IMG/VR virus record: IMGVR_UViG_3300031227_011131
Origin: a virus
Lineage: Duplodnaviria; Heunggongvirae; Uroviricota; Caudoviricetes
Length of the DNA stretch: 64,000 nucleotides
Direction: 5' to 3' (one strand)
The translations under genes and the position numbers were made by a program. This document shows positions 10 to 16,716 of this stretch, piece after piece; positions within the stretch are counted from its first letter, which is position 1, and each line of letters opens with the position of its first letter. The notes beneath the pieces were generated by a model. It was not told where the DNA came from. It searched no databases and saw only the letters and a program-made list of their open reading frames with translations.

Positions 10-429
10 ATGATTCTTAGGGGTTTGCCGGGTTCTGGCAAATCAACCTACGTAGCCGCTCACTATCCAGAGTCTGTTGTGTGTTCGGCAGATGATTGGT
101 TCTTGAAAGGTGGCGAATGTCGGTTCAATCCTTCCGAGATTGGACAGGCACATAGTGCCTGTCTGGGCAAGTTCATTCAAGCGTTGTCGGTGTGGAGAGA
201 AGTAGTTATTGTAGACAACACGAATGTTCACATTTGGGAGTTTGCGAACTATATTGCGATTGCAGAGATGTTAGGGTACAAAGTTGAGATTGTGGAATTT
301 CGGGCTACCACAACGAAACAATTGAGAAGGTGTGTAGAAAGGAACGTACATGGGGTTCCTTCGGCACTCATTTCGCGAATGTTTGGAGAATTTGAGTTTT
401 GCCGTGCCGGAACAGTTGTAGATGTATGA
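10..429 (+). CDS. polynucleotide 5'-kinase, kinase domain only (T4 Pnk-like P-loop kinase)
   Basis: Walker A GLPGSGKST at the N-terminus. Further blocks (VIVDNTN, LGYKVEIVEF, VERNVHGVPSALISRMF) align by eye with the T4 PseT kinase domain. No phosphatase domain follows. Confidence 0.7.
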   Translation: MILRGLPGSGKSTYVAAHYPESVVCSADDWFLKGGECRFNPSEIGQAHSACLGKFIQALSVWREVVIVDNTNVHIWEFANYIAIAEMLGYKVEIVEFRATTTKQLRRCVERNVHGVPSALISRMFGEFEFCRAGTVVDV

Positions 430-434
430 GAATT

Positions 435-509
435 GCCGCCATAGCTCAATTGAAAGAGCACTCGTCTTGTAAGCGAGGGGTGGGGGTTTGATTCCCTTTG
501 GCGGCTCCA
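435..509 (+). tRNA. tRNA-Thr (anticodon UGU), CCA encoded
   Basis: 7 bp acceptor GCCGCCA/TGGCGGC, anticodon loop CTTGTAA, T-arm GGGGG-TTTGATT-CCCTT, then terminal TCCA. The D-loop lacks GG, so the fold is atypical. Confidence 0.55.
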
Positions 510-510
510 G

Positions 511-759
511 ATGAAAAAGTGGTGCGTATATCTGCTGCTCTGCAATGATGGGACTTATTATTGTGGGGCGACGAATGACTTGCCAAAACGTGTAAAGAAA
601 CACAATGATGGCAAGGGGGCAAAATATACGCGGTCACGATTGCCTATTGAGGTATTATGTAGTCGTGAAGTTTTGACCAAGAGTGAAGCATTGAAGTTGG
701 AGATTCGTGTAAAGCGTTTACCACGGAGTTCCAAGATTGCGTTTTTGTCTGATGGGTGA
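511..759 (+). CDS. GIY-YIG family nuclease (small, YhbQ-like)
   Basis: VYLLLCNDGTYYCGATNDLPKRVKKHN matches the GIY-YIG core. The gene starts 2 nt after the tRNA. Confidence 0.6.
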   Translation: MKKWCVYLLLCNDGTYYCGATNDLPKRVKKHNDGKGAKYTRSRLPIEVLCSREVLTKSEALKLEIRVKRLPRSSKIAFLSDG

Positions 760-981
760 ATTATTGGGCTCATAGTTACAATTTTTTGATAAATTTCATT
801 ATATGGCGTGAACGTTCACGTAAGCATTAGACACAGTTGTCGAGTTTGAAAGATTATCAAAGAAAAAGTGGAAATACTCGTCATGTTTATGACCCTGTTT
901 TCAGAGAAAAGTTTTTGGTTTCAAAACCATATTGACAGACCGTGTTGTTGATTTCCAAAGTGATGGCAATACGTATGGTTT

Positions 982-1551
982 TTGGTTCACGAGGAATTCC
1001 ATTTCAAAGGAGCAAGTAGTGTGGACAGAGAAAGAGTAGCGCGAAACTTGGTAAAGTTAGCTAAGGAATTAGTTGCTGCGAAATTTGAGTTCAAACGTCT
1101 CAAGGGTAACCCTAATTCGTGGTATAACAATCCTCAGATGCGCGGCCACACATCGGCAAAAAAAACCGTTGATGAATTAGAGAGAATTGTTGTTAAATAT
1201 AGTAAGACTCCCGAGCAACGATTTATCATTGGTCGTGTTATTGATTTTGTTCAAGATGACTGGGATTATTTTCACAAAATCACAAAGAAGTATATGGCAA
1301 ATCTTTTGTTTACGTTGAAGAATCTTGACAAACTTGGTCCACTTGGAATGTTGATAAAATATCAGTCTCGTAGTGGCATTTGGCGTGAAGACGTAGAGCG
1401 TATACTCAATGTTATGGCGTATGATGATGACCCGGCGTCCTATGTTGATGAATATATAAGCCAATATATTTATCTTGGAATGGAACCCGAGGAGGCCAAA
1501 GAGCGTATCGAGAAATTGGTAAAGGTTTGGCGTTCTGACATGAGTATGTAA
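982..1551 (+). CDS. hypothetical protein with N-proximal RVARNLVKLAKELVA module
   Basis: 189 aa ORF. Carries the recurring KR-VAR-LVKLAKEL peptide module described in findings. Confidence 0.4.
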   Translation: MVHEEFHFKGASSVDRERVARNLVKLAKELVAAKFEFKRLKGNPNSWYNNPQMRGHTSAKKTVDELERIVVKYSKTPEQRFIIGRVIDFVQDDWDYFHKITKKYMANLLFTLKNLDKLGPLGMLIKYQSRSGIWREDVERILNVMAYDDDPASYVDEYISQYIYLGMEPEEAKERIEKLVKVWRSDMSM

Positions 1552-1730
1552 TTATTAAAGATGTTAATTCAATATTGGCTGTTAGATGGAGGACGTTGTG
1601 ATGTTTGAATGGCTTTTTGGTCGTCGTTTGTGTGATGCGCCTGACGATATTCGTCGTCGTGGTCGCGCATTGGTATTTGGCGCTTCGGCTTCAGTAAAAA
1701 CTTCTGTTGAAATAGAACAGGACAAGGAAA

Positions 1731-2264
1731 GTGAGGAAAGTGATGGAGATGAAGAAGAGGAAGACAGCGGATAAATCTATTTTGTCATTTTACTTATCGT
1801 ATGACCCAGAAGCTGAATCATTCTATGTTCAGAGTGATTTGACTCATAGGTTGTCTAGTAGAATTGCATCAGATGATTATGAATTATCTCCGGGCGGTCA
1901 GATAGTTTTATCGACAAATGTCAATGTTTTGAAGGGTATTATTGGAAGGATGCGCGGTTGGGCGAAGACGATTCTCAACAAGATTTATCGTGTACGGATG
2001 ACAGATGAATCTATCTTAGAGATATTGAAAGAGCGTGGATTATCTTCGGGGTGGTCGGTCGGGAATTTGTATAAGGGCAGGTATTACGATAGGCGGTCAA
2101 ATAATTCTTACAATGAGAAGAGTTTCACGATAGACATCAAAGGGTTGGATATGGATATTATTCGGAGCATTGCGAAGGCTCTTGGTAAGAAGTTCAATCA
2201 GAATGAGGTTATGATAGTTGATAACTCAAGTGGTGTTGCAAAGATAATCAAGACAGGAGCATAA
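1731..2264 (+). CDS. hypothetical protein
   Basis: 177 aa ORF on the + strand, abutting the next gene. Confidence 0.35.
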   Translation: MRKVMEMKKRKTADKSILSFYLSYDPEAESFYVQSDLTHRLSSRIASDDYELSPGGQIVLSTNVNVLKGIIGRMRGWAKTILNKIYRVRMTDESILEILKERGLSSGWSVGNLYKGRYYDRRSNNSYNEKSFTIDIKGLDMDIIRSIAKALGKKFNQNEVMIVDNSSGVAKIIKTGA

Positions 2265-2266
2265 TA

Positions 2267-2737
2267 ATGGAAGGTTACTGGTTGAATCCTCAGAATGACA
2301 AGTATATTGAAGTTATGGAGCATTCCAGTGATATTGGGGAAGAAAAGGTTCTTCGTCGGCTTGGGATGAATCCTAACAGATTTTTACCTAAGATTGAGGG
2401 GTTGTCTCCGTATGGAGATAGGATGAAGATTCTTATGGCGGCATTGAAGTCCGGTCTCATTCGTGTGCGGCGGCATGGCCATTCTACGACGTTTGAGTTT
2501 TATTCTTCAAGAAACATGGAAAACATTTTGATGGGGATATACATGTTTCTTCGGAAAACCAACATAGAAGGGAGTATTCAGGTAAACAACATAAAGAGCA
2601 AAGATTTTGCTTCTTTTTCCTTTACAGATTTGAAGGAAGCTATTGGTGAGGGCGAAGTTGAGACTTTGGTTCGTGTTGGCAAGATAGCGAGAAATATGGT
2701 TAAGTTGGCTAAGGGATTGTTGGAGCTGGATGATTAG
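2267..2737 (+). CDS. hypothetical protein with C-terminal KIARNMVKLAKGLLEL module
   Basis: 156 aa ORF. The recurring module sits at the extreme C-terminus. Confidence 0.4.
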   Translation: MEGYWLNPQNDKYIEVMEHSSDIGEEKVLRRLGMNPNRFLPKIEGLSPYGDRMKILMAALKSGLIRVRRHGHSTTFEFYSSRNMENILMGIYMFLRKTNIEGSIQVNNIKSKDFASFSFTDLKEAIGEGEVETLVRVGKIARNMVKLAKGLLELDD

Positions 2738-3412: not shown

Positions 3413-3486
3413 GGGAGCGTGACGGAACTGGCATACGTGGTCGGCTCAAACCCGGCATTTTGTGGGTTCGACTCCCACCGCTCCTA
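3413..3486 (+). tRNA. tRNA, anticodon read by eye as CAA, but class I (short variable arm), atypical
   Basis: Acceptor GGGAGCG/CGCTCCT, T-arm GTGGG-TTCGACT-CCCAC, anticodon stem GTCGG/CCGGC with loop CTCAAAC. The D-stem is only 3 bp. No CCA encoded. Confidence 0.45.
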
Positions 3487-3553
3487 TAATTCATCACATT
3501 TAGTGATGTGGATTGAAACAAAGGGTGAAAAATCCAGGACATTCTATCTTTTC

Positions 3554-3626
3554 CGGGGTCGCTTAATCGGTATGGTACTCGATTATTTTAGGATAGTATG
3601 GGTTCGAATCCTTCCCGGCCCACCAT
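3554..3626 (+). other. tRNA-like element (T-loop GGTTCGAATCC plus terminal CCACCA); cloverleaf not resolvable by eye, possibly a degenerate or pseudo-tRNA
   Basis: Canonical T-loop and a 3' CCA are present, but I could not pair an acceptor stem. Confidence 0.3.
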
Positions 3627-3838
3627 TTTGTGTTTATGAGTATAGTTCCGTGTGTGACAAAAGTTGCAGGTAGCGGGCACTGCGAGGGTTGGGAATTCAA
3701 AAAGCAGAGATTCCCATAAAAAAGGATGTAATTGGGGTGTTAACCAGAATGCTTGGGTTATATTCAGCCCAGTAAGTAGGTCGGTAATTAGTCCGACTAA
3801 CATTGCGGGGGCATCGTCCCTCACACACGGAACTTTTT

Positions 3839-3911
3839 GCCCCAGTGGCCTAATGGATAGGGCATCCGGCTTCTAACCGGATTTGTGCGGGTTCAAATCC
3901 TGCCTGGGGTA
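3839..3911 (+). tRNA. tRNA-Arg (anticodon UCU)
   Basis: Acceptor GCCCCAG/CTGGGGT, D-arm GCCT-AATGGATA-GGGC, anticodon arm TCCGG-CTTCTAA-CCGGA, T-arm GCGGG-TTCAAAT-CCTGC. Confidence 0.7.
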
Positions 3912-3916
3912 TTTTA

Positions 3917-4025
3917 CCCCTTGGAATGCTTTGGTGAAGGTTCGATTCCTTCCGTGGGGCCAGCATACTTGCCCAGTAGGCCAATTGGATAAGTCGCCTG
4001 GCTTCGAATCCGGGGTCGCCCATCA
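3917..4025 (+). other. two tRNA-like remnants: a T-arm/acceptor minihelix (3917-3960) and a tRNA-like element with T-loop CTTCGAAT (3961-4025)
   Basis: The first has GAAGG-TTCGATT-CCTTC followed by CGTGGGG, pairing with upstream CCCCTTG. The second has GGCTTCGAATCC followed by GGGGTCGCCCA. Neither gives a full cloverleaf. Confidence 0.25.
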
Positions 4026-5133: not shown

Positions 5134-5532
5134 ATGGAAATGGGCGAAAGCAAAGAGCCTGAATTGTCTTTTGATGAAATGGTAGCGGTAATTCGCAAAG
5201 ATGATGCTCGTTATGACAAAGCGGCTTATGGTTTTTTGGCGGCTGCTATGAACCTCTGTCATAAAGGACAAGGTGAGCGTCAGCATTTGACAGCTAGGGA
5301 AGTCTTGGATGGAATGTGCGAGTCTGCCAAAATAGATTTTGGAATGATGGCTTGCTGCGTGTTTGAGCAGTGGGGCATTCACAGCACAGATGATGTTGGC
5401 GAGATGGTTTTCAGTTTTGTAGATAGGGGTTTTTGTGGAAAGACTGAAGACGACAAGCGAGAAGATTTCCACAATGCTTTTGACCTTAAGGCGGAATTGC
5501 AAGATTATGAAATAGAGATGGAATCAGAATGA
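5134..5532 (+). CDS. hypothetical protein; C-terminal FCGKTEDDKREDF motif
   Basis: 132 aa ORF. The motif recurs downstream at 6055-6100. Confidence 0.4.
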   Translation: MEMGESKEPELSFDEMVAVIRKDDARYDKAAYGFLAAAMNLCHKGQGERQHLTAREVLDGMCESAKIDFGMMACCVFEQWGIHSTDDVGEMVFSFVDRGFCGKTEDDKREDFHNAFDLKAELQDYEIEMESE

Positions 5533-5966
5533 ACGTCAAGTGGCTTGTTGAAGATACGGCATTTGACGAAGACTTGATTCCAATGATTGATGAAATCAAG
5601 CGGCACGATATAGAGCCGCATCGTATGATTGTGGTAGCTGAACCACAGAATATAGAATGTGAATGGCGTTTCGTGATAGTCGAGAAACAAGTCATAGCGG
5701 GCTGCCCATATAAGAGTGCAGGATTGAAAGAAACACAGGAAGATAATGAACAAGCTAAACAGTTTGCACAGCAAGTAGCTCAAGCTGGATACAATCCTGA
5801 TGTAACTTGGACATTGGATGTGTGTAAGATACGTTCCGGCGCATTTAGGCTATTGGAAATTAACAGTTTTAGTTGTTCTGGATTGTATGAGTGTGAGATA
5901 GAACCTATTGTTAGGGAAGTATCGCGAGTTGCGTGGAAGGAGTGGATTTTCGATGTCGATTGCTAA
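5529..5966 (+). CDS. ATP-grasp-like domain protein (C-terminal half)
   Basis: WRFVIVEKQVIAG ... FRLLEINSFSCSGLYE resembles the ATP-grasp C-domain of RimK-type ligases. Confidence 0.35.
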   Translation: MNVKWLVEDTAFDEDLIPMIDEIKRHDIEPHRMIVVAEPQNIECEWRFVIVEKQVIAGCPYKSAGLKETQEDNEQAKQFAQQVAQAGYNPDVTWTLDVCKIRSGAFRLLEINSFSCSGLYECEIEPIVREVSRVAWKEWIFDVDC

Positions 5967-6099: not shown

Positions 6100-6750
6100 G
6101 TGTTCAACTTAGTTGAACAATTTAATGCCACATTGGGTTACGCTAACGAAAGGGACATTATGAATAATTCAGTAGATTGTGTAATTGTAGATGTTGATAA
6201 AACTAACGTGTATGGTCGTCCTGTTTCAGCGTCTATTTGTGAACAAGTGGTGAGACATTATGAGAATACGATGATTGAAAATGGAAAACTGGTTTATCGT
6301 AGTGTTACTGGTAAAGAAGACATTTCGGAGATAGGACATTTCATAAAACAGTTAGTGTTGGAGCAACTCTTGTATGAGTTTGGGCCAGATGATCCTGTTG
6401 TTTTAGCAGCTATTGATGATTGTTGTGATTTATACAATGTTACTTTGTCAGCAAGTATTGAATTTCCGGTGTTTGCGGGCTTAGAATCTGAGATAAGGTT
6501 AGAGGCGCGGAATGCTATTGATGAACTTTTGGATGATATTAAGGATGATGTATGTATTACTTATGATAGAATTGATCCATTGAGTGTTAAACATGCGGCT
6601 TTTGATGAGATTCCATGGGGAGACACTGACAAGGTTCAGTGTAGGCATGGGTCTGAGATTTTATCTGTTTTAGCAAAGCGGAATAAGGAACGTGAGTCGA
6701 AAGAATGGATGGACAAACATCAGATGAAGTTTGATTTCATGAGAGATTAA
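6100..6750 (+). CDS. hypothetical protein (GTG start; conserved peptide continues upstream across an in-frame TGA)
   Basis: 216 aa ORF. See the finding on 5953-6110. Confidence 0.4.
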   Translation: MFNLVEQFNATLGYANERDIMNNSVDCVIVDVDKTNVYGRPVSASICEQVVRHYENTMIENGKLVYRSVTGKEDISEIGHFIKQLVLEQLLYEFGPDDPVVLAAIDDCCDLYNVTLSASIEFPVFAGLESEIRLEARNAIDELLDDIKDDVCITYDRIDPLSVKHAAFDEIPWGDTDKVQCRHGSEILSVLAKRNKERESKEWMDKHQMKFDFMRD

Positions 6751-6818: not shown

Positions 6819-7022
6819 TTGAGGAAAAAGACACAGTTGTTTTTTGTAGTGTTGAAACACAAGTATGGCGGCCCTGCTGCGATTGACCCTGATGGTTATG
6901 AGGCTTGGTATCAAGATGGTTTTTTACATAGGTTAGATGGCCCTGCTGTGATTTATTTAGATGGAATTCAAAAATGGTTTTTGAATGGGAAACAGGTAAC
7001 TCAGGAAGAGGTTGAGGGATGA
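6819..7022 (+). CDS. MORN-variant-like repeat protein, paralog 1
   Basis: Repeat units W(Y/F)xNGxLHRxDGPAVI. The stop overlaps the next start (ATGA). Confidence 0.5.
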   Translation: MRKKTQLFFVVLKHKYGGPAAIDPDGYEAWYQDGFLHRLDGPAVIYLDGIQKWFLNGKQVTQEEVEG

Positions 7023-7324
7023 TTGAAGAAAAAACATCGGTTGTTTTTTGCTCAAATGAAAGACAAATATGGTATAAGGGTGGTACGCGTCATCGGCTTG
7101 ATGGACCTGCTTGTATTTTTCCTAATGGTTATCAAGAATGGTGTGTTAATGGCAGGCTACATAGGTTAGATGGTCCTGCTTTGATTTTTTCAAATGGTGG
7201 TCAAAAATGGCTCAAGGATGACAAATTACATAGGGTAGATGGTCCAGCCATAATCCACCCTGATGGTAGTCAAGAATGGTGGCTTGAGGATAAACGGGTA
7301 ACCAAGAAAGTAGTTGAGGGATGA
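7019..7324 (+). CDS. MORN-variant-like repeat protein, paralog 2
   Basis: Four HRLDGPA(L/C)IF repeat units. Confidence 0.5.
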   Translation: MIEEKTSVVFCSNERQIWYKGGTRHRLDGPACIFPNGYQEWCVNGRLHRLDGPALIFSNGGQKWLKDDKLHRVDGPAIIHPDGSQEWWLEDKRVTKKVVEG

Positions 7325-7496
7325 GATTGTATGAAGCTATAAAGCACGCAAAAGAGGTTGCTCATGAAGCTGGAGCAAATGGTGACTGCAAGTGTGCGAA
7401 AGAGCACGAGCAGTTGGTTAAATGGCTTACGGAGTTACAAGAGTTTCGCAAGCATAACATGAAGACTGATTGTGTTAGGGAAATAGAGCATGCCGG

Positions 7497-7667
7497 ATGA
7501 AGCAATTATTGAATGTGATAGCTGTTATTCATTCAAATGGTTGTCGATTTTGGTATCAAAATGGCGACCGTCATAGAGATGATGGTCCAGCTATTATATG
7601 GCATGATGGGAGTCAGGCTTGGTGTCTCAACGATAAGCAAGTTACTCAGGAAGAAGTTGAAGGATGA
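7497..7667 (+). CDS. MORN-variant-like repeat protein, paralog 3 (57 aa)
   Basis: MKQLLNVIAVIHSNGCRFWYQNGDRHRDDGPAIIWHDGSQAWCLNDKQVTQEEVEG. Below the ORF-track cutoff. Confidence 0.4.
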   Translation: MKQLLNVIAVIHSNGCRFWYQNGDRHRDDGPAIIWHDGSQAWCLNDKQVTQEEVEG

Positions 7668-7903
7668 AAGTAGAGCAAAATTCAGTTGTTTTTCATAGTG
7701 ATGAGAACCAGTTTTGGCGTAACAAGGCTGGCGAACGTCATAGGGATAATGGACCGGCTGTTATTTATTCAAATGGCAGTCAAATTTGGTATTATTGCAG
7801 TCAATTACATAGGGTAGGTGGTCCCGCAGTGATAAGATCAGATGGGTCTGAGTATTGGTATTTGAATGATAAACAAGCAACTCAGAAAGCAGTTGAAAGA
7901 TGA
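7664..7903 (+). CDS. MORN-variant-like repeat protein, paralog 4
   Basis: ERHRDNGPAVIYSNGSQIWYYCSQLHRVGGPAVI. Confidence 0.5.
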   Translation: MKVEQNSVVFHSDENQFWRNKAGERHRDNGPAVIYSNGSQIWYYCSQLHRVGGPAVIRSDGSEYWYLNDKQATQKAVER

Positions 7904-8047
7904 TTGAAGAAAAAAGTGGGATTTCTCTTTGTAATTTTCGCTTTTTAACGTGATGTGGTTAGTAGTTAGTTGAAAGCTCTGTAACGCTAAAAACAAAACT
8001 GGAGGTTTTGATGGTCCTGCTGAGATTTTTTCTGATGGAACACAAGA

Positions 8048-8542: not shown

Positions 8543-9658
8543 ATGATGTTGGCGATACAACGATATTTACGAGCAAACTCACTACAAGCCGCAGTTGACG
8601 AGTGGGCTTTCCGTGTACAAGAGCATGGCAGTCTTGTACAATTGAACTACTCTAGCGATTCCTCTTTAGGCGTTCAAGAGATTGAGGAATGTCGTGGCCT
8701 GATACTGTCCAAGCCTGATTGGGATGTCGTAGCGTATCCGTTCTATCGCTTCTACAATGAAGGCGAATCGTATGCGGCATGTCCCGACTTATCATCGTCT
8801 GTACTGCTTGAGAAGCTTGACGGCTCATTGATAACTCTGTATTGGAATCCAGAGTTGAAGGATTGGTGTGTTGCCACTCGCGGTACAATTCTGGCTGACG
8901 CAACATCAAACTGGAAGAAGTTATCGTTTCAAAGTTTGTTTTGGCAAGCAGTTCGGAAGTATTTGGATGTCGATTTTGAGCGACTTCCGAAGACTGTCAA
9001 CTTGATGTTTGAGCTTATTGGCCCGGACAACCGCGTGTTGACTTGGTATCCAGAAGCCGACTTGCGATTGTTGGCGGCCCGTGACTTGACAACTTTGGAA
9101 GAATTGGACGATGAGGAACTGGACGGATTGTCTGGACTATTAGGCATTCCGCGTCCGAAGGTATTCTCATTTTTTTCTCGTGAGGATGTGTTGGCATTAC
9201 TTGACACATTGGACGAAAAGGATGAAGGTTTTGTTCTGGTTGACTATGACCACAAGAAAGATGGCAACTTTCTGCGCATCAAAGTAAAGAACAAGCGTTA
9301 CTTGGAATTGGCTTATCGTCTACATGCGGGGCAATTGAGCATACTGACTCCAAAGAACATCATTCGTATGATTCGTTCTGACGAAGTAGATGAGATGCTT
9401 GCCTATTTCCCCGAGTTCGGCTCGGACGTTGATTCGGTACGTCAAAAGCTGGGAGACTTGGCGGCTCAAATAGACCGAGATTTTGAGTCTGTCAAGCATT
9501 TGGGAATTGACCGTAAGGAATTAGCGAAGATTGTTGGCAAGATGGTTTGTCCAAAAGCCATATTCTGGCTATTGGATGGCAAGCTACAATCAGGTCGTCA
9601 ATTTTTGATGACTTGCTTTGAGAAAACTTTGTTTCGATTGCTGGGATTTTTCAGCTAA
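8543..9658 (+). CDS. ATP-dependent RNA ligase, T4 Rnl1-like
   Basis: Nucleotidyltransferase motif I EKLDGSL (KxDGSL as in T4 Rnl1). 371 aa, consistent with Rnl1 size. Confidence 0.6.
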   Translation: MMLAIQRYLRANSLQAAVDEWAFRVQEHGSLVQLNYSSDSSLGVQEIEECRGLILSKPDWDVVAYPFYRFYNEGESYAACPDLSSSVLLEKLDGSLITLYWNPELKDWCVATRGTILADATSNWKKLSFQSLFWQAVRKYLDVDFERLPKTVNLMFELIGPDNRVLTWYPEADLRLLAARDLTTLEELDDEELDGLSGLLGIPRPKVFSFFSREDVLALLDTLDEKDEGFVLVDYDHKKDGNFLRIKVKNKRYLELAYRLHAGQLSILTPKNIIRMIRSDEVDEMLAYFPEFGSDVDSVRQKLGDLAAQIDRDFESVKHLGIDRKELAKIVGKMVCPKAIFWLLDGKLQSGRQFLMTCFEKTLFRLLGFFS

Positions 9659-9771: not shown

Positions 9772-9844
9772 AGGGACGTAGCTCAGCAGGAAGAGCAAAC
9801 GACTGATAATCGTTAGGTCGGAGGTTCAAATCCTCCCGTCCCGA
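9772..9844 (+). tRNA. tRNA-Ile (anticodon GAU)
   Basis: D-arm GCTC-AGCAGGAA-GAGC, anticodon arm AACGA-CTGATAA-TCGTT, T-arm GGAGG-TTCAAAT-CCTCC, acceptor (A)GGGACG/CGTCCCG. Followed by TTTTT. Confidence 0.65.
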
Positions 9845-9872: not shown

Positions 9873-9985
9873 GCTTAGTCAATAATCAACATTTTGGGCA
9901 GAAAAGATGATTTTTACGAGAAAAAATTCTGGCATAGGTGATATAGTAAGTAGAGAAAGTTTGAAAGTGGCCAAAGGAGATTACA
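9873..9985 (+). repeat. direct repeat copy 1 (about 95 bp), containing the promoter-like GGTGATATAGT and GAAAGTTTGAAAGTGG
   Basis: Near-identical to 10866-10968. The two copies flank the GC-rich ORF. Confidence 0.8.
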
Positions 9986-10852
9986 ATGAACACCGACATC
10001 GTATACGCCGCAGTCGGCAAAACCACACACCTTGGCAGCACACTGGCCGAAGCCAAAACCAAAGCCGCCGAAGCCGGCGATACGCCCACAATCAGCGGTC
10101 GCGTTTGGTGGGCATGGGTTGGCGCTGGGGCAGACCCGAAACCCGCAAGAGGGCCATACCCGACCTTGGCCGATGCCGACGTTGCCCTATCGACATTTCG
10201 TGCACGGCATGGCGCCCTGGCCGGCACATACGAAGCTGCGGGCAGGATAGGGCTTCGAGGATGCATCGGACGAGAGCACTGCCGGAAGTACGCTGATGTT
10301 TCAAGGCTAGGCGATGTAATGCGGGAACAGGTCGAGAAAAAAGACCGGGAACAGGTCGAGAAAAAAGAAATGGACGTAAACACTCCCATAGGACAAGTCA
10401 AAGTCGATGAAGTCGAGGTCAACGAAGATGGTGCTTATCCCTCCGGTTGGATCAACGCCTCCATCCTGGTAGGAGACAAAGAACACTTTACCGGGGCCTC
10501 GTGGTCGTACGACAGCCCCAGCGTAGACTATTACCGAAAACAACGCATGCCCGCCCCGCGTCTCGAAATCAAGGTGTACGGCTACGACGACCACGAACCC
10601 TCCAATGAGACGATCATGAAGGCCATTTGCGAGGCAGGGCTAGAAGATAGCGATCTCGCGGACGACATCATCACCGCAGTCCGGGATGCTTGCCGCGACG
10701 CGGTGTATAATGCTCGTGAGTCTGTTTGCTGTCTCAGTATTGCAAAACACTTGCTAACCCGCGCAGCAGACCGTATGCGCCTCCTGGAGCTACTACAAGA
10801 CGAAATTGCCGATCTCGTATACGGTGACACGATAGCGGCACATTTTTCGTAA
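9986..10852 (+). CDS. hypothetical protein encoded by a GC-rich (about 60% GC) insert, i.e. a moron
   Basis: 288 aa. Codon usage and GC differ strongly from neighbours. Contains a 24 bp tandem duplication (REQVEKKD x2) at about 10321-10368. Confidence 0.5.
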   Translation: MNTDIVYAAVGKTTHLGSTLAEAKTKAAEAGDTPTISGRVWWAWVGAGADPKPARGPYPTLADADVALSTFRARHGALAGTYEAAGRIGLRGCIGREHCRKYADVSRLGDVMREQVEKKDREQVEKKEMDVNTPIGQVKVDEVEVNEDGAYPSGWINASILVGDKEHFTGASWSYDSPSVDYYRKQRMPAPRLEIKVYGYDDHEPSNETIMKAICEAGLEDSDLADDIITAVRDACRDAVYNARESVCCLSIAKHLLTRAADRMRLLELLQDEIADLVYGDTIAAHFS

Positions 10853-10865: not shown

Positions 10866-10968
10866 TTTATCAACATTTTGGGCAGAAAAGATGATTTTTA
10901 CGAGAAAAAATTCTGGCATAGGTGATATAGTAAGTAGAGAAAGTTTGAAAGTTTGAAAGTGGCCAATA
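10866..10968 (+). repeat. direct repeat copy 2 (GAAAGTTT unit triplicated instead of duplicated)
   Basis: Same about 95 bp sequence as 9873-9985. Confidence 0.8.
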
Positions 10969-10981: not shown

Positions 10982-11404
10982 ATGAGAATAACAGAACTGA
11001 CCAAGCAGGAAATAGTGGAGAGAAAGGCAATGGCAATGGCAATGTTGGAAGTTTTGGATGATTATGATTGGGGTGAGGTGTTTGCGTTTTCGGGCGGTGA
11101 AGGTTTTGGGAGTGTTGGGGACATTAGAGAGGCCATTCCGGGGCAGAACATAATTCTTGGTCCCTTTGGTCGGGCGGATGTATCCGAAATCATAGCAATG
11201 TCTCCTGGGCAAAATGATAGAGAGAGTTGGATGGTTTGTGGCGGTCTCAATGACGGTTGTTGGTTTTTCATAGAGGCTGGTTGCTGCTACACTGGTTGGG
11301 ATTGTCAGGCCTACGGCAGCACTACGATTGCCAGGACTAAGGCGGAGCTAATTAGGTTTGGGCTAACGAAGGATGCTCGGGAGCGAATGGGTTTGGAGCT
11401 ATAG
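10982..11404 (+). CDS. hypothetical protein
   Basis: 140 aa ORF after the second repeat copy. Confidence 0.4.
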   Translation: MRITELTKQEIVERKAMAMAMLEVLDDYDWGEVFAFSGGEGFGSVGDIREAIPGQNIILGPFGRADVSEIIAMSPGQNDRESWMVCGGLNDGCWFFIEAGCCYTGWDCQAYGSTTIARTKAELIRFGLTKDARERMGLEL

Positions 11405-11418: not shown

Positions 11419-11490
11419 TGCCTGGTGGTGTAATTGGTAACACACCAGATTTTGATTCTGGCATTCCAGGTTCAAGTCCTGGCCGGGCAA
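11419..11490 (+). tRNA. tRNA-Gln (anticodon UUG)
   Basis: U1:A72 acceptor TGCCTGG/CCGGGCA, D-arm GTGT-AATTGGTA-ACAC, anticodon arm CCAGA-TTTTGAT-TCTGG, T-arm CCAGG-TTCAAGT-CCTGG. Confidence 0.7.
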
Positions 11491-11914: not shown

Positions 11915-11920
11915 TTTAAT

Positions 11921-12014
11921 GGATAGGTGGCCGAGTTTGGTCTAAGGCTCTGGTTTCGAAAATCAGTAGGCGGTGTCAAACACTGTCTCGTGGGTTCAAA
12001 TCCCACCCTATCCG
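11921..12014 (+). tRNA. tRNA-Ser (anticodon CGA), class II with a long variable arm
   Basis: Acceptor GGATAGG/CCTATCC, anticodon arm CTGGT-TTCGAAA-ATCAG, T-arm GTGGG-TTCAAAT-CCCAC. Confidence 0.65.
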
Positions 12015-12076
12015 TCAATGGTGGAGTTGTCTAAGAGGCTATTTGGTTTAGCAAGCAATTCAAAAAAGGGAACACA

Positions 12077-12517
12077 ATGAAGCCGAAGTTAGTCAAGGGC
12101 AACATTTTTGACACAGGATGTCAGTGGATTGGTCATGGCGTTAATTGTGTTGGCGTTATGGGTGCTGGTATTGCATTACAGGTTCGCCGCAGGTATCCGT
12201 ATTCTTTCACGGTTTACCAACAGGTCATTCATGACACTGGTTTAGTTCCGGGGCAGAACATTTATGTTGTAGAGAATCCTCATTCGATATGTCACATGGC
12301 GACACAACCTAGGCCTGGGAGATTTGCTTGTCTTGAACTTGTTGAGATGTGTATTAGTGAGTTTATTCAAGAATACAACGAAGTGGGTGTTTCACTTGCT
12401 TTGCCGCGTATTGGTTGTGGCATAGGCGGCTTGAATTGGGAAGATGTATCACAGTTATTGGAAAAGCTGTTTACGCCCACTGCTATTGAGGTTGAGTTTT
12501 GGACGTATATGTTGTAA
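12077..12517 (+). CDS. macro-domain protein (ADP-ribose binding or hydrolase)
   Basis: GNIFD ... HGVNCVGVMGAGIALQV is the macro-domain signature. Confidence 0.7.
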   Translation: MKPKLVKGNIFDTGCQWIGHGVNCVGVMGAGIALQVRRRYPYSFTVYQQVIHDTGLVPGQNIYVVENPHSICHMATQPRPGRFACLELVEMCISEFIQEYNEVGVSLALPRIGCGIGGLNWEDVSQLLEKLFTPTAIEVEFWTYML

Positions 12518-12568: not shown

Positions 12569-13792
12569 ATGCAGGTTATCAATGACAATGGAAATTTGAT
12601 TAAGGCTTGGATTGACGGTGTTTCCGTTGAAGATGGGGCTGTTGCGCAGTTGAAGAAGTGTGCTCAGATGCCTTTCATTTTCAAGCATGTAGCTGCAATG
12701 CCAGATGCTCATGTGGGAATGGGCGCTTGTATTGGTAGCGTAATTCCTACTATCGGTGCTGTTATGCCTTCGGCTGTTGGCGTTGACATTGGGTGTGGAA
12801 TGGCTGCGGTAAGAACTACGCTTACCGAGTCTGACATTCCAGAGGCAATCAGACCCGATGTACGTTTTGCTATCGAAAATGCAATTCCAGCGGGCCGTTC
12901 GCATAACGGTGGCAAGGGCGACATTGGAGCCTGGGATAAGTTGCCAACTGTTGTAGAAGCCATTTGGCTTGACGAGCTTGCAGAGGACTACGACAAGATT
13001 ACTGAGAAGCACAGGGGAGCTAAGGGATACAACGATGTAAACCAACTTGGTACGCTTGGGACGGGCAATCACTTCATTGAGATTTGTTTGGACAAGGACA
13101 ACCGAGTATGGTTCATGTTGCATTCTGGTTCTCGTGGTTGCGGAAACAGAATTGGCAGCTATTTCATCAAGTTTGCAAAAGAGCTTTGCAATAAGTGGTT
13201 TATCAATTTGCCTGATTCTGATTTGGCTTATTTTCCACAGCGCACTGAAGAATTTTCAGATTACATGTTTGCGGTTGGCTGGGCGCAGAAGTTTGCCAGG
13301 TTGAATCGTGATTTAATGATGCAGTCTCTTGTTGACGCTATCAGGGGAGTGACATCTGTTCCTGAGTTTGAGTTTGAAGGCGATGTAGTCGATTGTCATC
13401 ACAACTATGTTGCTTTTGAGAATCATTTTGGCAAGAATATATTAGTAACTCGCAAAGGTGCAATTCGTGCTCGCAAGGATGAGCTTGCTATTATTCCTGG
13501 TAGTATGGGCACGCGCTCGTACATTGTGCGAGGTCTTGGCAATAGGGACAGTTTTTGCAGTGCTTCGCATGGTGCTGGTCGTTGTATGTCACGAACCCGG
13601 GCGCGCAAAACGATCACGGTAGATCAGCATGTTGCGGCTACAAAGGGTGTTGAGTGCGTTAAGGATAAGACTGTATTGGACGAATCACCTTTGGCGTATA
13701 AGGATATTGACAAGGTAATTGAAGCTGAACGGGATTTGGTAGAGCCTGTTCATACCTTACGTCAGATAATTTGCGTCAAAGGAATTGGATAA
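12569..13792 (+). CDS. rtcB: RtcB RNA ligase (3'-phosphate/5'-hydroxyl RNA ligase)
   Basis: 407 aa. Metal-ligand blocks AMPDAHVGMG, GCGMAAV, GTGNHFIE, HSGSRG and HNY are all present in RtcB order. Confidence 0.85.
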   Translation: MQVINDNGNLIKAWIDGVSVEDGAVAQLKKCAQMPFIFKHVAAMPDAHVGMGACIGSVIPTIGAVMPSAVGVDIGCGMAAVRTTLTESDIPEAIRPDVRFAIENAIPAGRSHNGGKGDIGAWDKLPTVVEAIWLDELAEDYDKITEKHRGAKGYNDVNQLGTLGTGNHFIEICLDKDNRVWFMLHSGSRGCGNRIGSYFIKFAKELCNKWFINLPDSDLAYFPQRTEEFSDYMFAVGWAQKFARLNRDLMMQSLVDAIRGVTSVPEFEFEGDVVDCHHNYVAFENHFGKNILVTRKGAIRARKDELAIIPGSMGTRSYIVRGLGNRDSFCSASHGAGRCMSRTRARKTITVDQHVAATKGVECVKDKTVLDESPLAYKDIDKVIEAERDLVEPVHTLRQIICVKGIG

Positions 13793-13830
13793 AAGGACGC
13801 AAAAAGGACGCAAAAAGGACGCAAAAAATT
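13793..13830. repeat. tandem repeat (AAAAGGACGC) x3 just downstream of rtcB
   Basis: Read directly: ggacgcaaaaaggacgcaaaaaggacgcaaaaaa. Confidence 0.7.
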
Positions 13831-13837
13831 GAAAAAA

Positions 13838-13848
13838 GGTGATATAAT
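13838..13848 (+). promoter_or_regulatory. extended -10-like promoter GGTGATATAAT
   Basis: TGnTATAAT consensus, about 100 nt upstream of tRNA-Leu. Followed by a TTGACAATT element. Confidence 0.45.
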
Positions 13849-13952
13849 AGGGAGCACATTTGATTGACAATTAAGTTTTTGCGGGTGTGGTGGAATTGGC
13901 ATACACGATATGCTATTTTGTTGTTTGACAATTGAGTTTGTTATGATATAAT

Positions 13953-14036
13953 GCGGGTGTAGCCGAACGGCATAGGCGACGGACTTAAAATCCGTTGGGT
14001 GTAATACCCATGTGGGTTCGAATCCCACCACCCGCA
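13953..14036 (+). tRNA. tRNA-Leu (anticodon UAA), class II
   Basis: Acceptor GCGGGTG/CACCCGC, D-arm GCC-GAACGGCATA-GGC, anticodon arm ACGGA-CTTAAAA-TCCGT, variable arm TGGGTGTAATACCCAT, T-arm GTGGG-TTCGAAT-CCCAC. Confidence 0.75.
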
Positions 14037-14052
14037 TCAGTGAGGAGGAATC

Positions 14053-14823
14053 ATGAAAATTGATAGGAAGGAGTTTGAGAAAGCGTGGAATGGCAATTTG
14101 GCTGTGAGAGAGATACGTAATGCGTTTGGCCTATCGGAAAGGCAAGTTAGGAAGTTCAGGGATGAATACAACTTAAAAAAGCGAAAGAGAGGCGGAGTAC
14201 GGGTTAGCGAGTATCCAAAGACGAGTGAATCTGCCTATTTGCTTGGAGTGGCTTTAGGGGATGGAGATTTAGGAATCGTAGGAAGAACGATTAGGTTGAG
14301 GCTATTTTGTGACATAAAATTTCCATGCTTGATAGACAAGTGGCGTAATACATGTAATGCGGTTTTGGGATGTAATTCAAGTGTTATATCGTGGGGGAAG
14401 AATTGCAAAGCTGTGATGGCATATTCTAAGAAGTTACAAGAGTTTCCATGGAAACCTCGAAAAGGAAGAAAGTGGGAACAAAATGTTCGTATTCCAGATT
14501 GGGTCAAGGATGGTGGGTTCCTGATTGATTGTTTGGTTGGCCTCTTTGAAGCTGATGGTTGCATTTATACTCAACGGGTGAAAGTTGGAAACAGAGTCTA
14601 TGAATACGAAAGGGTGAGTTTTAGCAATTCTGCAGAGTTGCTGATTCGGGATGTGATTGATTTTCTGTTGGATAATGGCATATCACATACAGTTGTTGAG
14701 CGTCCCGTAGGTGGTAAAACGATGATAAATGGAAAACCAGTAGTAAGTAGAACAATCAATTATTACATACAGATTATAGATAGGGATGGGTTTCTTGATT
14801 TAGTGCCGTTTAGTAAGACTTAA
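14053..14823 (+). CDS. LAGLIDADG homing endonuclease (two-motif)
   Basis: Motifs LLGVALGDGDLGIV and LVGLFEADGCIYT. The start is 17 nt after the tRNA-Leu end. Confidence 0.75.
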   Translation: MKIDRKEFEKAWNGNLAVREIRNAFGLSERQVRKFRDEYNLKKRKRGGVRVSEYPKTSESAYLLGVALGDGDLGIVGRTIRLRLFCDIKFPCLIDKWRNTCNAVLGCNSSVISWGKNCKAVMAYSKKLQEFPWKPRKGRKWEQNVRIPDWVKDGGFLIDCLVGLFEADGCIYTQRVKVGNRVYEYERVSFSNSAELLIRDVIDFLLDNGISHTVVERPVGGKTMINGKPVVSRTINYYIQIIDRDGFLDLVPFSKT

Positions 14824-14896
14824 AATCCGTTGGCCCTTTTTGGCTGTGTGGGTTCGAGTCCCACCACCCGCATCAGTGAGGAGGAATCATGAAAAT
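14817..14896 (+). repeat. diverged duplicate of the tRNA-Leu 3' half (from the anticodon loop) plus the downstream RBS and ATGAAAAT
   Basis: GACTTAAAATCCGTTGG ... GTGGGTTCGAGTCCCACCACCCGCATCAGTGAGGAGGAATCATGAAAAT parallels 13982-14060. Confidence 0.65.
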
Positions 14897-15152
14897 GGAT
14901 TTGAATGAGTTGCTGACTGAAGCAAAGAGCAAACTCGGCAAGCAAGAGATGGCCAAGCTTGACCACTTGCTTGAAGACATAGAGAAGGTAGGCGCGAGCG
15001 TTGTCAACTTGGACGATGGCTTGCATTTGAAAGTCAATTGGTGTTTGTATTCTTTGCCTGAGTTTATGGAGGCGTATCGCAGGCATGACAAATGGCCTGA
15101 TCTTTGGATGGAACGCATGCAAAAAATAGGACAATCAGTGCCTATTCATTGA
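14889..15152 (+). CDS. hypothetical protein
   Basis: 87 aa. Its start region is duplicated at the start of the homing-endonuclease ORF. Confidence 0.4.
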   Translation: MKMDLNELLTEAKSKLGKQEMAKLDHLLEDIEKVGASVVNLDDGLHLKVNWCLYSLPEFMEAYRRHDKWPDLWMERMQKIGQSVPIH

Positions 15153-15343
15153 GTGGAGATGTTATGGGTTATCGGAGGTGCAAGTGTGGGGCGTGTATGG
15201 AACATCTTTTGGTAGAGGGTACAAACGAAGAGTGTGTTTTTTGGTGTCCAGAATGTGGCAGGGCGTTGTGTATGTTACAAGAGGAAACAGCTTGGCACGA
15301 GCCAAGTTGTATAAAGCAAGAGGACGAATTGGGTAAAAAATAG
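15104..15343 (+). CDS. zinc-ribbon protein (CxxC ... CPECG)
   Basis: 79 aa with two CxxC pairs. Confidence 0.35.
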   Translation: MDGTHAKNRTISAYSLSGDVMGYRRCKCGACMEHLLVEGTNEECVFWCPECGRALCMLQEETAWHEPSCIKQEDELGKK

Positions 15344-15409
15344 TATTGAGATTCAGGTGTTTGATTACCACCATTGAGAAATGGTAGGACAATATGAAAA
15401 GGAGAAAAG

Positions 15410-15697
15410 ATGAGCGATACTAAGGAGAAATCTGGCAGTTTGGAAACGTATGAAACGTATGATACGAATGATTTTTTGACGGCCAATTTCTTACTGGCCA
15501 AACATGCCAGGCTTGTTGGAAGTCGCTTTGAGGGTCGTTGGCTTGTGTTCATATTTGCAAATAAAGCGGAATGTGAGAATTTGATAAATGATCTGAATTA
15601 TGGCGATGACAATGTATCCGCGTCGGTTTTCTTTGATGCTGGTAAGCGTTTGAAGAAAATCATACATTCCCAGGATAGAGGTTATGGCAAAAGATGA
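15410..15697 (+). CDS. hypothetical protein
   Basis: 95 aa ORF. Confidence 0.35.
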   Translation: MSDTKEKSGSLETYETYDTNDFLTANFLLAKHARLVGSRFEGRWLVFIFANKAECENLINDLNYGDDNVSASVFFDAGKRLKKIIHSQDRGYGKR

Positions 15698-16035
15698 GAG
15701 TTATCATAGCTGGTTCAAGAGAGGTGAAATCTTACGATGTTGTTGAAGAAGCCATAAAAGAATCAGGTTTTGCCATATCACAAGTCGTAAGTGGGATGGC
15801 AAGCGGTGTGGATGCTCTTGGTGTATTGTGGGCAAAAGAGAATGATGTTTTATTGGCTGAGTATCCAGCCGATTGGAAAAGATATGGTCGTGCTGCCGGG
15901 ATGATTCGTAACAAGCAGATGTCGGAGAATGCAGATGCTCTTGTTGCAATATGGGATGGTAAGTCACACGGCACTCAGAATATGATAGGTACTGCAAAAG
16001 CTCAAGGATTGATGGTCTATGTGAAACAAGTCTGA
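15694..16035 (+). CDS. SLOG/DprA-like Rossmann-fold protein (DUF2493-like)
   Basis: IIAGSR ... GMASGVDA ... AIWDGKSHGT resembles the DprA/LOG Rossmann core. Confidence 0.4.
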   Translation: MRVIIAGSREVKSYDVVEEAIKESGFAISQVVSGMASGVDALGVLWAKENDVLLAEYPADWKRYGRAAGMIRNKQMSENADALVAIWDGKSHGTQNMIGTAKAQGLMVYVKQV

Positions 16036-16058
16036 AAAGTAGAAACTTTTTGGGCATT

Positions 16059-16070
16059 CGGTGATATTAA
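16059..16070 (+). promoter_or_regulatory. -10-like element CGGTGATATTAAG upstream of the phosphoesterase gene
   Basis: Member of the motif family, about 40 nt before the likely ATG at 16114. Confidence 0.35.
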
Positions 16071-16095
16071 GATAGGTTACGAATGAAAGTTTATC

Positions 16096-16716
16096 TTGAC
16101 AAGGAATAGGACGATGTTTTTCGTTGGCGATGTGCATGGGCGATTTGAGGAATACAAGCGAATCATAGTTGATTTGCCTCAAATCATTCAGCTTGGCGAC
16201 ATGGGATTGGGGTTTGGCAAAGATAAACAGTATCTCGACAATCCCTCTTATCGCTTTTTAAGAGGCAATCACGACAGTCCGGCTATCTGTCGGAAGCAGT
16301 TCAGCTATCTTGGGGATTGGGGCTATTTGAAGGATGAGGGCGTATTTTACGTTAGTGGTGCGTATTCAGTTGACAAGGCGATGCGTACCATTGATTTAGA
16401 TTGGTGGCCTGAAGAGCAGCTTGACTATCAGACATTTTGTCGGGCAATTGAGTCGTACAAGCTTCTGAAGCCAGAGATTGTAGTTTCGCATGACTGTCCG
16501 TTTGACATTCTGCCATACGTGATGGGCAATGCTCGGAGATGTAAGCGGAATTCGACGGTAATGGCTTTGCAGCAGATGTTTGATGCTCATAGGCCTAATT
16601 TGTGGATATTTGCCCATCACCACAAGTCAAGGAAGTTTTCTGTTGATGGAACGTTGTTCATCTGTGTGGGTATCTTAGGTGTATACGATTCAGAGATAAA
16701 TCAGTTCGTAACGTGA
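16096..16716 (+). CDS. calcineurin-like metallophosphoesterase
   Basis: GDVHG, GDMG and RGNHD motifs. The true start is probably the ATG at about 16114. Confidence 0.7.
   Translation: MTRNRTMFFVGDVHGRFEEYKRIIVDLPQIIQLGDMGLGFGKDKQYLDNPSYRFLRGNHDSPAICRKQFSYLGDWGYLKDEGVFYVSGAYSVDKAMRTIDLDWWPEEQLDYQTFCRAIESYKLLKPEIVVSHDCPFDILPYVMGNARRCKRNSTVMALQQMFDAHRPNLWIFAHHHKSRKFSVDGTLFICVGILGVYDSEINQFVT

Follow-up and report, generated by a model that had tools for sequence, protein, structure and literature searches.

The stretch of DNA analyzed in this work (the window) consists of 64,000 nucleotides of the tailed-phage record IMGVR_UViG_3300031227_011131, and it contains near its beginning genes for a polynucleotide 5'-kinase, an Rnl1-family RNA ligase, an RtcB ligase, a calcineurin-type metallophosphoesterase (MPE) and a macro-domain protein, which are interspersed with tRNA genes. 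The first-pass annotation of this DNA had described positions 10-16716 as an RNA-repair toolkit, and searches of the Pfam, PHROG and NCBIfam profiles confirm all five of the protein families which it had named. However, genes for the salvage of nicotinamide adenine dinucleotide (NAD+) and for a SLOG domain protein, which that annotation had missed, adjoin the MPE gene. Due to the presence of these genes next to the repair genes, the region is better described as a multi-pronged accessory or counter-defence island than as a pure RNA-repair toolkit. On balance, we consider it probable that this is an accessory counter-defence region, in which a split heal-and-seal system, an RtcB route, tRNAs and NAD+/SLOG genes are combined. 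The five proteins are as follows:

1-429, + strand: stand-alone polynucleotide 5'-kinase, 139 amino acids (aa) from the ATG at position 10 (Pfam AAA_33, E 1.1e-16)
8543-9658, + strand: Rnl1-family ATP-dependent RNA ligase, 371 aa (RNA_lig_T4_1, E 2.7e-11; PHROG 562, E 8.7e-36)
12077-12517, + strand: macro domain protein of the TARG1/DarG/SCO6735 class, 146 aa (Pfam Macro, E 8e-10)
12569-13792, + strand: RtcB 3'-phosphate/5'-OH RNA ligase, 407 aa (Pfam RtcB, E 1.5e-122)
16096-16716, + strand: calcineurin-type MPE, called as 200 aa from position 16114 (Metallophos, E 7.3e-07; PHROG 1649, E 3.4e-21)

The kinase, the phosphoesterase and the two RNA ligases

The identities of these genes, the completeness of their catalytic motifs and the repeated clustering of the kinase, MPE and Rnl1 families in other phages are direct observations, and they are presented here in turn. 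The reading frame of the kinase is open up to the edge of the window, and in the source contig (see below) the gene encodes 143 aa, starting 12 nt upstream of the ATG. Its P-loop (MILRGLPGSGKST) is located at the N-terminus, and the alignment of the family retains GxxGxGK, D32, D73-N74-T75 and R115. The top Foldseek matches of its AlphaFold2 (AF2) model (pLDDT 93.8; alignment of 54 homologs) are the kinase domain of T4 Pnkp (2IA5; 25% identity), the tRNA(Sec) kinase PSTK and mammalian PNKP, with further fold matches to the Clostridium thermocellum kinase CthPnk (4GP6, TMq 0.78) and a fungal RNA 5'-OH kinase, all of which are nucleic-acid kinases. Based on the AAA_33 match and the presence of T4 Pnkp among the top folds, the earlier assignment of a T4 Pnk-like kinase domain is well founded. 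A fused C-terminal HAD (DxDxT) 3'-phosphatase domain is lacking in this stand-alone protein, and neither the window nor the 10 kb upstream of it yielded a HAD phosphatase; the Pnkp proteins of the phages phiPMW and Evy match the window kinase via their kinase part only.

The separation of the kinase from the phosphoesterase had been regarded as unusual in the first-pass annotation, and this view has to be revised. Stand-alone homologs of the kinase are present in 527 phage records, and Pakpunavirus JG004 as well as most of the 74 kinase-anchored IMG/VR loci have them side by side with an RNA ligase (gene linkage was examined in 74-83 loci per anchor gene, with 10 kb considered on either side). 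An ATP-dependent RNA ligase is found within this distance in 44 of the 74 kinase-anchored loci, where it is mostly adjacent and in several cases fused to the kinase; further, a separate phosphoesterase of the calcineurin superfamily (Metallophos_2) lies directly upstream of the kinase in 19/74. The split kinase is thus shown to be common.

The MPE retains every metal-binding motif of its superfamily, viz. GDxHG, GD, GNHD, H126 and GHHH, all invariant in 47 homologs, and together with the Metallophos match these bear out the calcineurin-type phosphoesterase proposed earlier. In the ranking of solved folds for its AF2 model (pLDDT 96.8), the RNA lariat-debranching enzyme Dbr1 comes nearest (TM 0.69), and it is followed by purple acid phosphatase, Rv0805, PptH and LpxH. 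A relationship to CthPnkp and lambda-phosphatase was also considered and it was rejected, as neither of them is near the top of this ranking. The MPE family is large (over 1,130 proteins, each about 200 aa long and mainly on long phage-like contigs), and its members elsewhere adjoin genes for Rnl1, the kinase or CCA-adding enzymes; in S-CBWM1 and RcXuper their neighbours are a CCA-adding enzyme and arrays of tRNAs. The window MPE is a candidate for an RNA 3'-end healing enzyme. A weaker companion suggestion is that the Dbr1-like family as a whole may represent an uncharacterised 3'-end healing enzyme of RNA, which takes the place of the HAD domain of Pnkp. That a large uncharacterised family of this kind travels with Rnl1 and the stand-alone Pnk kinase makes it a candidate which can be tested.

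The Rnl1 protein covers the Pfam RNA_lig_T4_1 model in full (1-227), and PHROG 562 extends over its residues 33-349, inclusive of the C-terminal region. In comparison with T4 Rnl1 (2C5U), from which it is distant (phmmer E 5e-4), motifs I (KLDG), III (FELIGP), IV (EGFVLV) and V (IKVKNK) are in register, and the claim of an Rnl1-like ligase is upheld by these matches and motifs. In RtcB, the counterparts of the Pyrococcus horikoshii residues D95, C98, N202, H203, H234, H329 and H404, which are involved in metal binding and guanylylation, are all retained within the aligned motifs GVDIGCG, GNHF, HSGSRG, HHN and SHGAGR; this complete catalytic set leaves the earlier identification of RtcB in place. 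No match to the archease or RTC (RtcA) families was detected among the open reading frames (ORFs) scanned in 1-24 kb. The E. coli-type RtcB works without archease, so that this partner is not required. With their intact motifs, the kinase, Rnl1, RtcB and the phosphoesterase look functional. The IMG/VR homolog sets were obtained by alignment-based searches; with the single Rnl1 protein as a query IMG/VR gave zero relatives and with RtcB alone only 4, and RtcB is present in 693 phage records.

The three heal-and-seal families are found together in many other viral contigs. Rnl1 is present within 10 kb in 19/80 MPE-anchored loci as compared to 0/83 of those anchored on RtcB (Fisher p = 4e-7). One example of this linkage is the contig L253, where Rnl1, MPE and kinase follow each other in that order without gaps, and in three others (L241, L248 and L252), whose Rnl1 sequences are among the closest to that of the window, Rnl1 and MPE are adjacent with the kinase 2-3 kb further on. 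In phiPMW and the Streptomyces phage Evy, Rnl1 is located beside a fused Pnkp among tRNAs. Based on these adjacent or fused homologs, the view that the kinase, phosphoesterase and Rnl1 form a heal-and-seal set is supported. The surroundings of RtcB are of a different kind: it is located in tRNA clusters in 32/83 loci, as well as in the Pseudomonas phage D6, and its occurrence close to Rnl1 is rare in the loci sampled. RtcB was seen in 0/74 kinase-anchored loci, a kinase is near RtcB in about 4/83 RtcB-anchored loci, and an ATP-dependent ligase is within 10 kb of it in 3/83, this being Rnl2 in all three.

Metal-independent anticodon nucleases leave 2',3'-cyclic phosphate and 5'-OH ends. Such ends are joined directly by RtcB, which accepts either a 2',3'-cyclic phosphate or a 3'-phosphate, whereas Rnl1 needs the prior action of a kinase and of a 3'-end phosphoesterase on them and by itself can seal 3'-OH/5'-phosphate nicks. 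If tRNA is the substrate, as we infer along with the order of the steps and the role in counter-defence, then the stand-alone Pnk-type kinase would phosphorylate the 5'-OH ends, the Dbr1-like calcineurin-type phosphoesterase would remove the 2',3'-cyclic or 3'-phosphate groups, and Rnl1 would then seal the resulting 3'-OH/5'-phosphate nick. RtcB would join the unhealed ends in a single step, and the putative ADP-ribose hydrolase encoded directly ahead of it may form part of this one-step module. The split pathway, the RtcB module, the tRNAs, the NAD+ salvage enzymes (NAPRT and NadE) and the SLOG protein would together keep translation going when host defences cut tRNAs, ADP-ribosylate nucleic acids or drain NAD+.

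The macro-domain protein and the NAD+ salvage genes

The macro domain named in the first-pass annotation is indeed present, but it does not count among the classical RNA-repair enzymes, as the protein is of the type which removes ADP-ribose, either from nucleic acids or from proteins. Among PDB sequences it comes closest to the DarG macrodomains 5M3I and 5M31, and it matches positions 3-144 of 338, i.e. only the N-terminal part, of the NCBIfam model antitoxin_DarG (E 1.1e-24); with its 146 aa it lacks the C-terminal DarT-binding domain of DarG. N23, which corresponds to N22 of Taq DarG, is invariant in the family alignment, and this active-site Asn is kept in 80/81 phage homologs. The position of the catalytic Lys (K80 in Taq DarG, K84 in TARG1 and K78 in the phiKZ protein AdfM) is occupied by Gln77, which is near-invariant in the subfamily; among the 81 phage homologs, 43 have K and 36 have Q in this column. 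In view of this replacement, the protein was rejected as a direct orthologue of DarG or AdfM. SCO6735, which has Gln85 at the same position, removes ADP-ribose that is linked to thymidine in DNA and gives protection from DarT (PMC9411070), and AdfM (phiKZ gp104) is a phage macro protein which counters DarT2 (PMC13309987). It is plausible that the window protein is a nucleic-acid ADP-ribose hydrolase, and only its gene context links it to RNA repair.

This context is as follows. The stop codon of the macro gene is 52 nt upstream of the RtcB start, and the same adjacency is seen in the diverged IMG/VR contigs L261 (7742-11933) and L262 (8825-12127), whose RtcB proteins are 44% identical. In both of these, the Gln-type macro and RtcB genes are contiguous, with Rnl2 just upstream, within arrays of 27-29 tRNAs, so that in all three cases the pair is located in a tRNA array near an ATP-dependent ligase. 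The adjacency can reflect either a joint pathway or co-inheritance. We know of no phage repair route for tRNA which has been both ADP-ribosylated and cut. A coupled two-gene pathway of this kind, in which RNA ends or bases would first be freed of ADP-ribose by the macro protein and then become accessible to resealing by RtcB, and a tRNA that was both modified and cleaved by a host toxin would be repaired, is in our view a speculative and improbable explanation. The recurrence of a Gln-type macro-RtcB pair in diverged phages is nevertheless one useful product of this analysis.

The genes which flank the MPE gene, or are located beyond it, code for the following:

15694-16035, + strand: YAcAr-family SLOG domain protein, 113 aa (Pfam YAcAr, E 4.9e-13)
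16738-17817, + strand: nicotinate phosphoribosyltransferase (NAPRT) (Pfam QRPTase_N and QRPTase_C; NCBIfam NF006415, 247 bits, above the cut-off)
18826-19836, + strand: NAD+ synthase NadE with an N-terminal MshEN/T2SSE_N-like domain (NAD_synthase, E 4.9e-73; MshEN, E 6.7e-08; NF010587, 263.5 bits)

Depending upon the start codon chosen, NAPRT begins 22-72 nt past the MPE gene, and NadE is 1 kb past NAPRT. The known phage NAD+ pathways are NARP1 (Adps and Namat), NARP2 (Nampt and Nmnat) and NARP3 (PnuC and NadR) (PMC13464706). None of these gene pairs corresponds to the NAPRT and NadE of the window, in which the Adps and Nampt queries from JG004 also match nothing, and by their sequences NAPRT and NadE would constitute a Preiss-Handler-type phage NAD+ module different from NARP1, NARP2 and NARP3. 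A nicotinic acid mononucleotide (NaMN) adenylyltransferase was not seen beside these two genes (16738-19836). SLOG/DprA-like genes also adjoin the module in JG004, in the Sinorhizobium phage phiM12 and in several IMG/VR loci, and the functional set of RNA ligase, phosphoesterase, macro, SLOG/DprA-like and NAD+ genes recurs in JG004 and phiM12.

If the macro protein belongs functionally with SLOG, NAPRT and NadE, and perhaps with the MPE, then these genes could make up an NAD+/ADP-ribose counter-defence, which reverses the DarT-type ADP-ribosylation of phage DNA or destroys ADP-ribose-derived signals and which has no part in RNA repair. This explanation is quite possible, while falling short of being probable. 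The similarity of the macro protein to the DarG macrodomains and to antitoxin_DarG, the Gln which it shares with SCO6735, an enzyme acting on DNA ADP-ribose and against DarT (PMC9411070), the precedent of AdfM for phage macro proteins countering DarT2 (PMC13309987) and the location of the MPE gene between SLOG and NAPRT are all in accordance with it, and in the IMG/VR locus L226 the MPE and macro genes are adjacent to each other near a Nampt gene. However, the macro gene adjoins RtcB both in the window and in L261 and L262, an NAD+ gene is within 10 kb in only 3/80 macro-anchored loci, a significant linkage ties the MPE family to Rnl1 and the kinase, and the macro protein is without the domain by which DarG binds DarT.

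The tRNA genes, the genomic setting and the inserted elements

The window corresponds to approximately 102.9-166.9 kb of the 221,945-bp ENA metagenome contig ERZ27316532 k141_455309, as established by exact protein matches, and pieces of the same sequence are present in two JGI metagenomes and one SRA run. In view of the length of this contig, the source is an uncultured jumbo phage. Near-identical DNA for 8-17 kb of the window was not found among 50,697 phage records, the large terminase shares no more than 33% identity with any entry of the phage collection (the best match being from an uncultured 485-kb phage), and judging from its sequences the phage lineage is very distant from those described. 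All of the window genes are on the + strand. The G+C content is 0.50 at 10-12 kb and about 0.42 elsewhere in the window.

ARAGORN and the Rfam tRNA model (49.6-69.9 bits) agree on nine tRNAs in the window. They are the nine which had been listed in the first-pass annotation, with the same anticodons, and seven of them are within 10-16716 and two just beyond. These tRNAs, each detected by both programs, and the one promoter that is of note are as follows:

435-509, + strand: tRNA-Thr(UGU)
3413-3486, + strand: tRNA with CAA anticodon, 74 nt
3838-3912, + strand: tRNA-Arg(UCU)
9772-9844, + strand: tRNA-Ile(GAU)
11419-11490, + strand: tRNA-Gln(UUG)
11920-12016, + strand: tRNA-Ser(CGA), copy 1, 98% identical to copy 2
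13925-13952, + strand: perfect sigma-70-type promoter (TTGACA, 16 nt, TATAAT, with upstream TG), abutting tRNA-Leu(UAA)
13952-14038, + strand: tRNA-Leu(UAA)
22048-22119, + strand: tRNA-Thr(CGU)
23425-23521, + strand: tRNA-Ser(CGA), copy 2

The 10 kb upstream of the window contain at least 5 further tRNAs and three weaker tRNA-like matches, so that at least 14 tRNAs are present across 74 kb of the contig. That these tRNAs would replace those which are cut is one interpretation of their presence, and a role in codon supply is equally compatible with it. If the latter role applies, then the tRNAs serve codon supply, or translation late in infection as the host tRNAs decay, and the repair enzymes are a separate matter; this is possible, but we lean against it. 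Along the whole window the coding strand is strongly skewed towards G over C, and C34 is found in 4 of the 10 distinct anticodons (CAA, CGA, CGU and CUC), which read NNG codons only. Codons of this type are heavily used by the phage itself (among the Leu codons TTG accounts for 41%, and the shares of ACG, TCG and GAG for Thr, Ser and Glu are 24%, 16% and 49%, respectively), and both the CAA and the Ser-CGA tRNAs are duplicated. However, in many phages the tRNA genes are located with RNA ligases, kinases and CCA-adding enzymes, and codon supply and replacement do not exclude each other.

The tRNA genes also bear on whether the ligases process the phage's own RNAs, through tRNA splicing or maturation, rather than repairing damage. 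In archaea and animals, RtcB serves as the ligase of tRNA splicing, and there are many phage tRNA genes here, some of them oddly structured. However, all nine tRNAs are predicted to be continuous and intron-less, and neither a group I intron nor any other RNA family is seen above the Rfam threshold in the window; an own-RNA role is accordingly very improbable.

Among the oddly structured tRNAs, that with the CAA anticodon (3413-3486) has a Leu-type D-arm and an A73 discriminator without the long variable arm, an architecture which differs from that of bacterial tRNA-Leu, and a second, decaying copy of it with T-stem mismatches is present upstream of the window (2554-2630 of the upstream segment L003). 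In the same segment, about 8.5-9 kb upstream of the window, two UGG (Pro) tRNAs of 90 and 82 nt (1094-1183 and 1381-1462; Rfam tRNA about 59 bits) possess long variable arms, which is unusual for this anticodon, and an ordinary 76-nt tRNA-Pro(UGG) adjoins them. The tRNA-like pieces noticed by eye at 3548-4015 have no Rfam match, also when the threshold is relaxed to E <= 1. Promoter-like and terminator-like sites are no more frequent than in shuffled sequences, with the sole exception of the perfect promoter before tRNA-Leu(UAA). Within 13790-13952, past the RtcB stop, there is a triple tandem of 'AAAAAGGACGC', then a promoter-like TTGACA, a 5' tRNA-like fragment (GCGGGTGTGGTGGAATTGGCATAC) and finally this sigma-70 promoter.

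Several observations weigh against a tRNA-repair pathway of the kind proposed. The heal-and-seal genes do not form an operon: the kinase is at position 10, with Rnl1 and the MPE following at 8.5 and 16.1 kb, respectively, and over these 16 kb they are separated by tRNAs, homing-endonuclease genes and recent insertions. The neighbours of the MPE here are SLOG and NAPRT and not RNA enzymes, and its top folds do not include the CthPnkp or lambda-phosphatase clade. The best-known targets of anticodon nucleases are the Lys, Tyr, Asn, His and Asp tRNAs, and no tRNA found here decodes any of these amino acids. Further, RtcB is unable to use a 5'-phosphate which the kinase has made and would be blocked by it; therefore, it will be incorrect to interpret the two routes as a relay, and they are instead competing alternatives. 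It is also to be considered whether the genes have no joint function at all, the region being a hypervariable accessory zone that gathers independent auxiliary genes, tRNAs and selfish elements. The scattering of the repair genes over 17 kb, the LAGLIDADG gene and another ORF lying within direct repeats of 65 nt and (perfect) 84 nt, respectively, the duplicated and decaying tRNAs, the GIY-YIG and HNH genes which abut tRNAs and the rarity of Rnl1 and kinase genes around RtcB in other loci are all expected in this case. However, many unrelated phages have members of the kinase, MPE and Rnl1 families side by side or fused and the macro-RtcB pair recurs in diverged contigs, and in view of these results the absence of any joint function appears rather unlikely. 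A joint counter-defence role thus remains the interpretation that we prefer.

A number of inserted elements are present among these genes. Two direct repeats of 65 nt with 92% identity (14011-14075 and 14847-14911) surround the LAGLIDADG endonuclease gene (14053-14823). In each repeat the 3' end of tRNA-Leu(UAA) is found along with a ribosome-binding site and an ATG, and the gene looks like a homing-endonuclease insertion that has duplicated its target at the tRNA 3' end. A GC-rich ORF of 288 aa without a family match (9986-10852) is flanked by perfect 84-nt direct repeats (9885-9968 and 10869-10952) and looks like a recent cassette insertion, in which an intergenic promoter-like segment was duplicated. 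A small GIY-YIG protein (511-759) begins 2 nt past tRNA-Thr(UGU), and an HNH endonuclease (21474-22013) ends 35 nt before tRNA-Thr(CGU); endonuclease genes abutting tRNAs in this manner resemble the homing endonucleases of the T4 tRNA region. In the later part of the window, 39757-61069 is dense in selfish elements: the large terminase (49779-52688; 969 aa) has an insert matching intein-containing helicases, the portal protein (56720-61069; 1449 aa) has an endonuclease-like insert, and a transposase (45548-46696) and a 406-aa HNH protein (39757-40977) are also found.

Of the remaining ORFs, seven small paralogs of 56-101 aa (6819-8465), located between an uncharacterised 216-aa ORF and Rnl1, are made up of repeats of about 23 aa (HRxDGPAxIxxDGxxxWxxNG), their only match being a weak one to DUF6745. 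The model of the R2K-clade ATP-grasp family is matched by ORF 5529-5966 (within 5134-5966) over its C-terminal half only; the overlapping ORF 5134-5532 may be the N-terminal half of a split or frameshifted gene. The 177-aa product of 1731-2264 has a sub-threshold match to S-adenosylmethionine (SAM) lyase (E 3.3e-4; 21 bits as compared to a cut-off of 28) and it may be an anti-restriction SAM-degrading enzyme. The ORFs 982-1551, 6100-6750 and 10982-11404 gave zero matches against PDB sequences. KptA/Tpt1, 2H, archease, RtcA, HAD phosphatase, CCA-adding enzyme, Adps and Nampt were not found by Pfam, PHROG, NCBIfam or tblastn with phage examples, and KptA, 2H, cRec, RlaP and a CCA-adding enzyme are likewise not seen in the 74 kb examined.

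Comparison with known systems

With the T4 Pnkp and Rnl1 system, which counters PrrC, the window phage shares the kinase fold (2IA5), the Rnl1 motifs and the context of phage tRNA genes. However, its kinase of 139-143 aa is a stand-alone protein without the HAD/DxDxT domain, the healing of 3' ends would fall to an unrelated binuclear metallophosphoesterase whose gene is 16 kb distant, and its Rnl1 is, as noted earlier, only a distant relative of that of T4. The Pnkp/Hen1 system of Clostridium thermocellum has the same three chemistries and also employs a binuclear metallophosphoesterase instead of a HAD domain, and the window kinase superposes on CthPnk (4GP6). However, CthPnkp is a single polypeptide, whereas the window has three separate genes and an Rnl1-type ligase; further, no Hen1-like methyltransferase was detected in Pfam scans of the window ORFs, and the nearest folds of the window MPE are Dbr1, purple acid phosphatase and Rv0805. 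The macro protein is of the same subclass as DarG2, AdfM, SCO6735 and human TARG1, with which it shares the conserved Asn (N22 of DarG), and its Gln at the position of DarG K80 corresponds to Gln85 of SCO6735; it differs from DarG, AdfM and TARG1 in lacking the catalytic Lys, from DarG in lacking the DarT-binding domain, and in its location beside RtcB and tRNAs.

A parallel in gene content is provided by the cassette of the Pakpunavirus phages JG004/PAK_P1, which is made up of a Metallophos_2 phosphoesterase, an RNA ligase, a stand-alone kinase, NARP1 (Adps and Nampt), a macro 'phosphatase' and a DprA-like gene. The JG004 kinase, located directly beside an Rnl1-family ligase, is homologous to that of the window (34% identity, E 4e-16), and its macro protein is also homologous (E 2e-11) and likewise of the Gln type. 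In both cases, one neighbourhood combines an NAD+ module and a SLOG/DprA-like gene with an Rnl1-family ligase and a phosphoesterase of the calcineurin superfamily. However, the JG004 cassette is compact (within 8 kb), its phosphoesterase is from another subfamily (Metallophos_2), its NAD+ module is NARP1 and RtcB is lacking in the 14-kb locus examined.

Kits of this kind for tRNA rescue have been described before in large phages. In 2021, Iyer, Anantharaman, Krishnan, Burroughs and Aravind (PMC7824862) reported that jumbo phages supplement their tRNAs with RtcB and ATP-grasp ligases in any combination, e.g. RtcB, Rnl1 and Rnl2 in BcepSaruman and BcepSauron, two phages of Burkholderia, that these ligases are probably non-redundant and repair the lesions of different RNases, and that they work with polynucleotide kinases and phosphoesterases, the latter being calcineurin-like in a few phages; the same phages bear NAD+ salvage, macro and YAcAr SLOG genes. 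The layered counter-defence that we infer matches this proposal, and the same logic is put forward in PMC9503650. If it holds, then the window phage is a further example of large phages protecting translation by several non-redundant routes at once, viz. spare tRNAs, ligation by two chemistries and countermeasures involving NAD+ and ADP-ribose, an idea which is already published. The window phage is similar to the phages described by Iyer et al. in that its RtcB is accompanied by an ATP-dependent ligase, a kinase and a calcineurin-like phosphoesterase, as well as by many tRNAs and by NAD+ salvage, macro and YAcAr SLOG genes, and it differs from them in its very distant lineage, in the Dbr1-like subfamily of its MPE, in the Gln-type macro gene beside RtcB and in the presence of NAPRT and NadE in place of NARP1-3.

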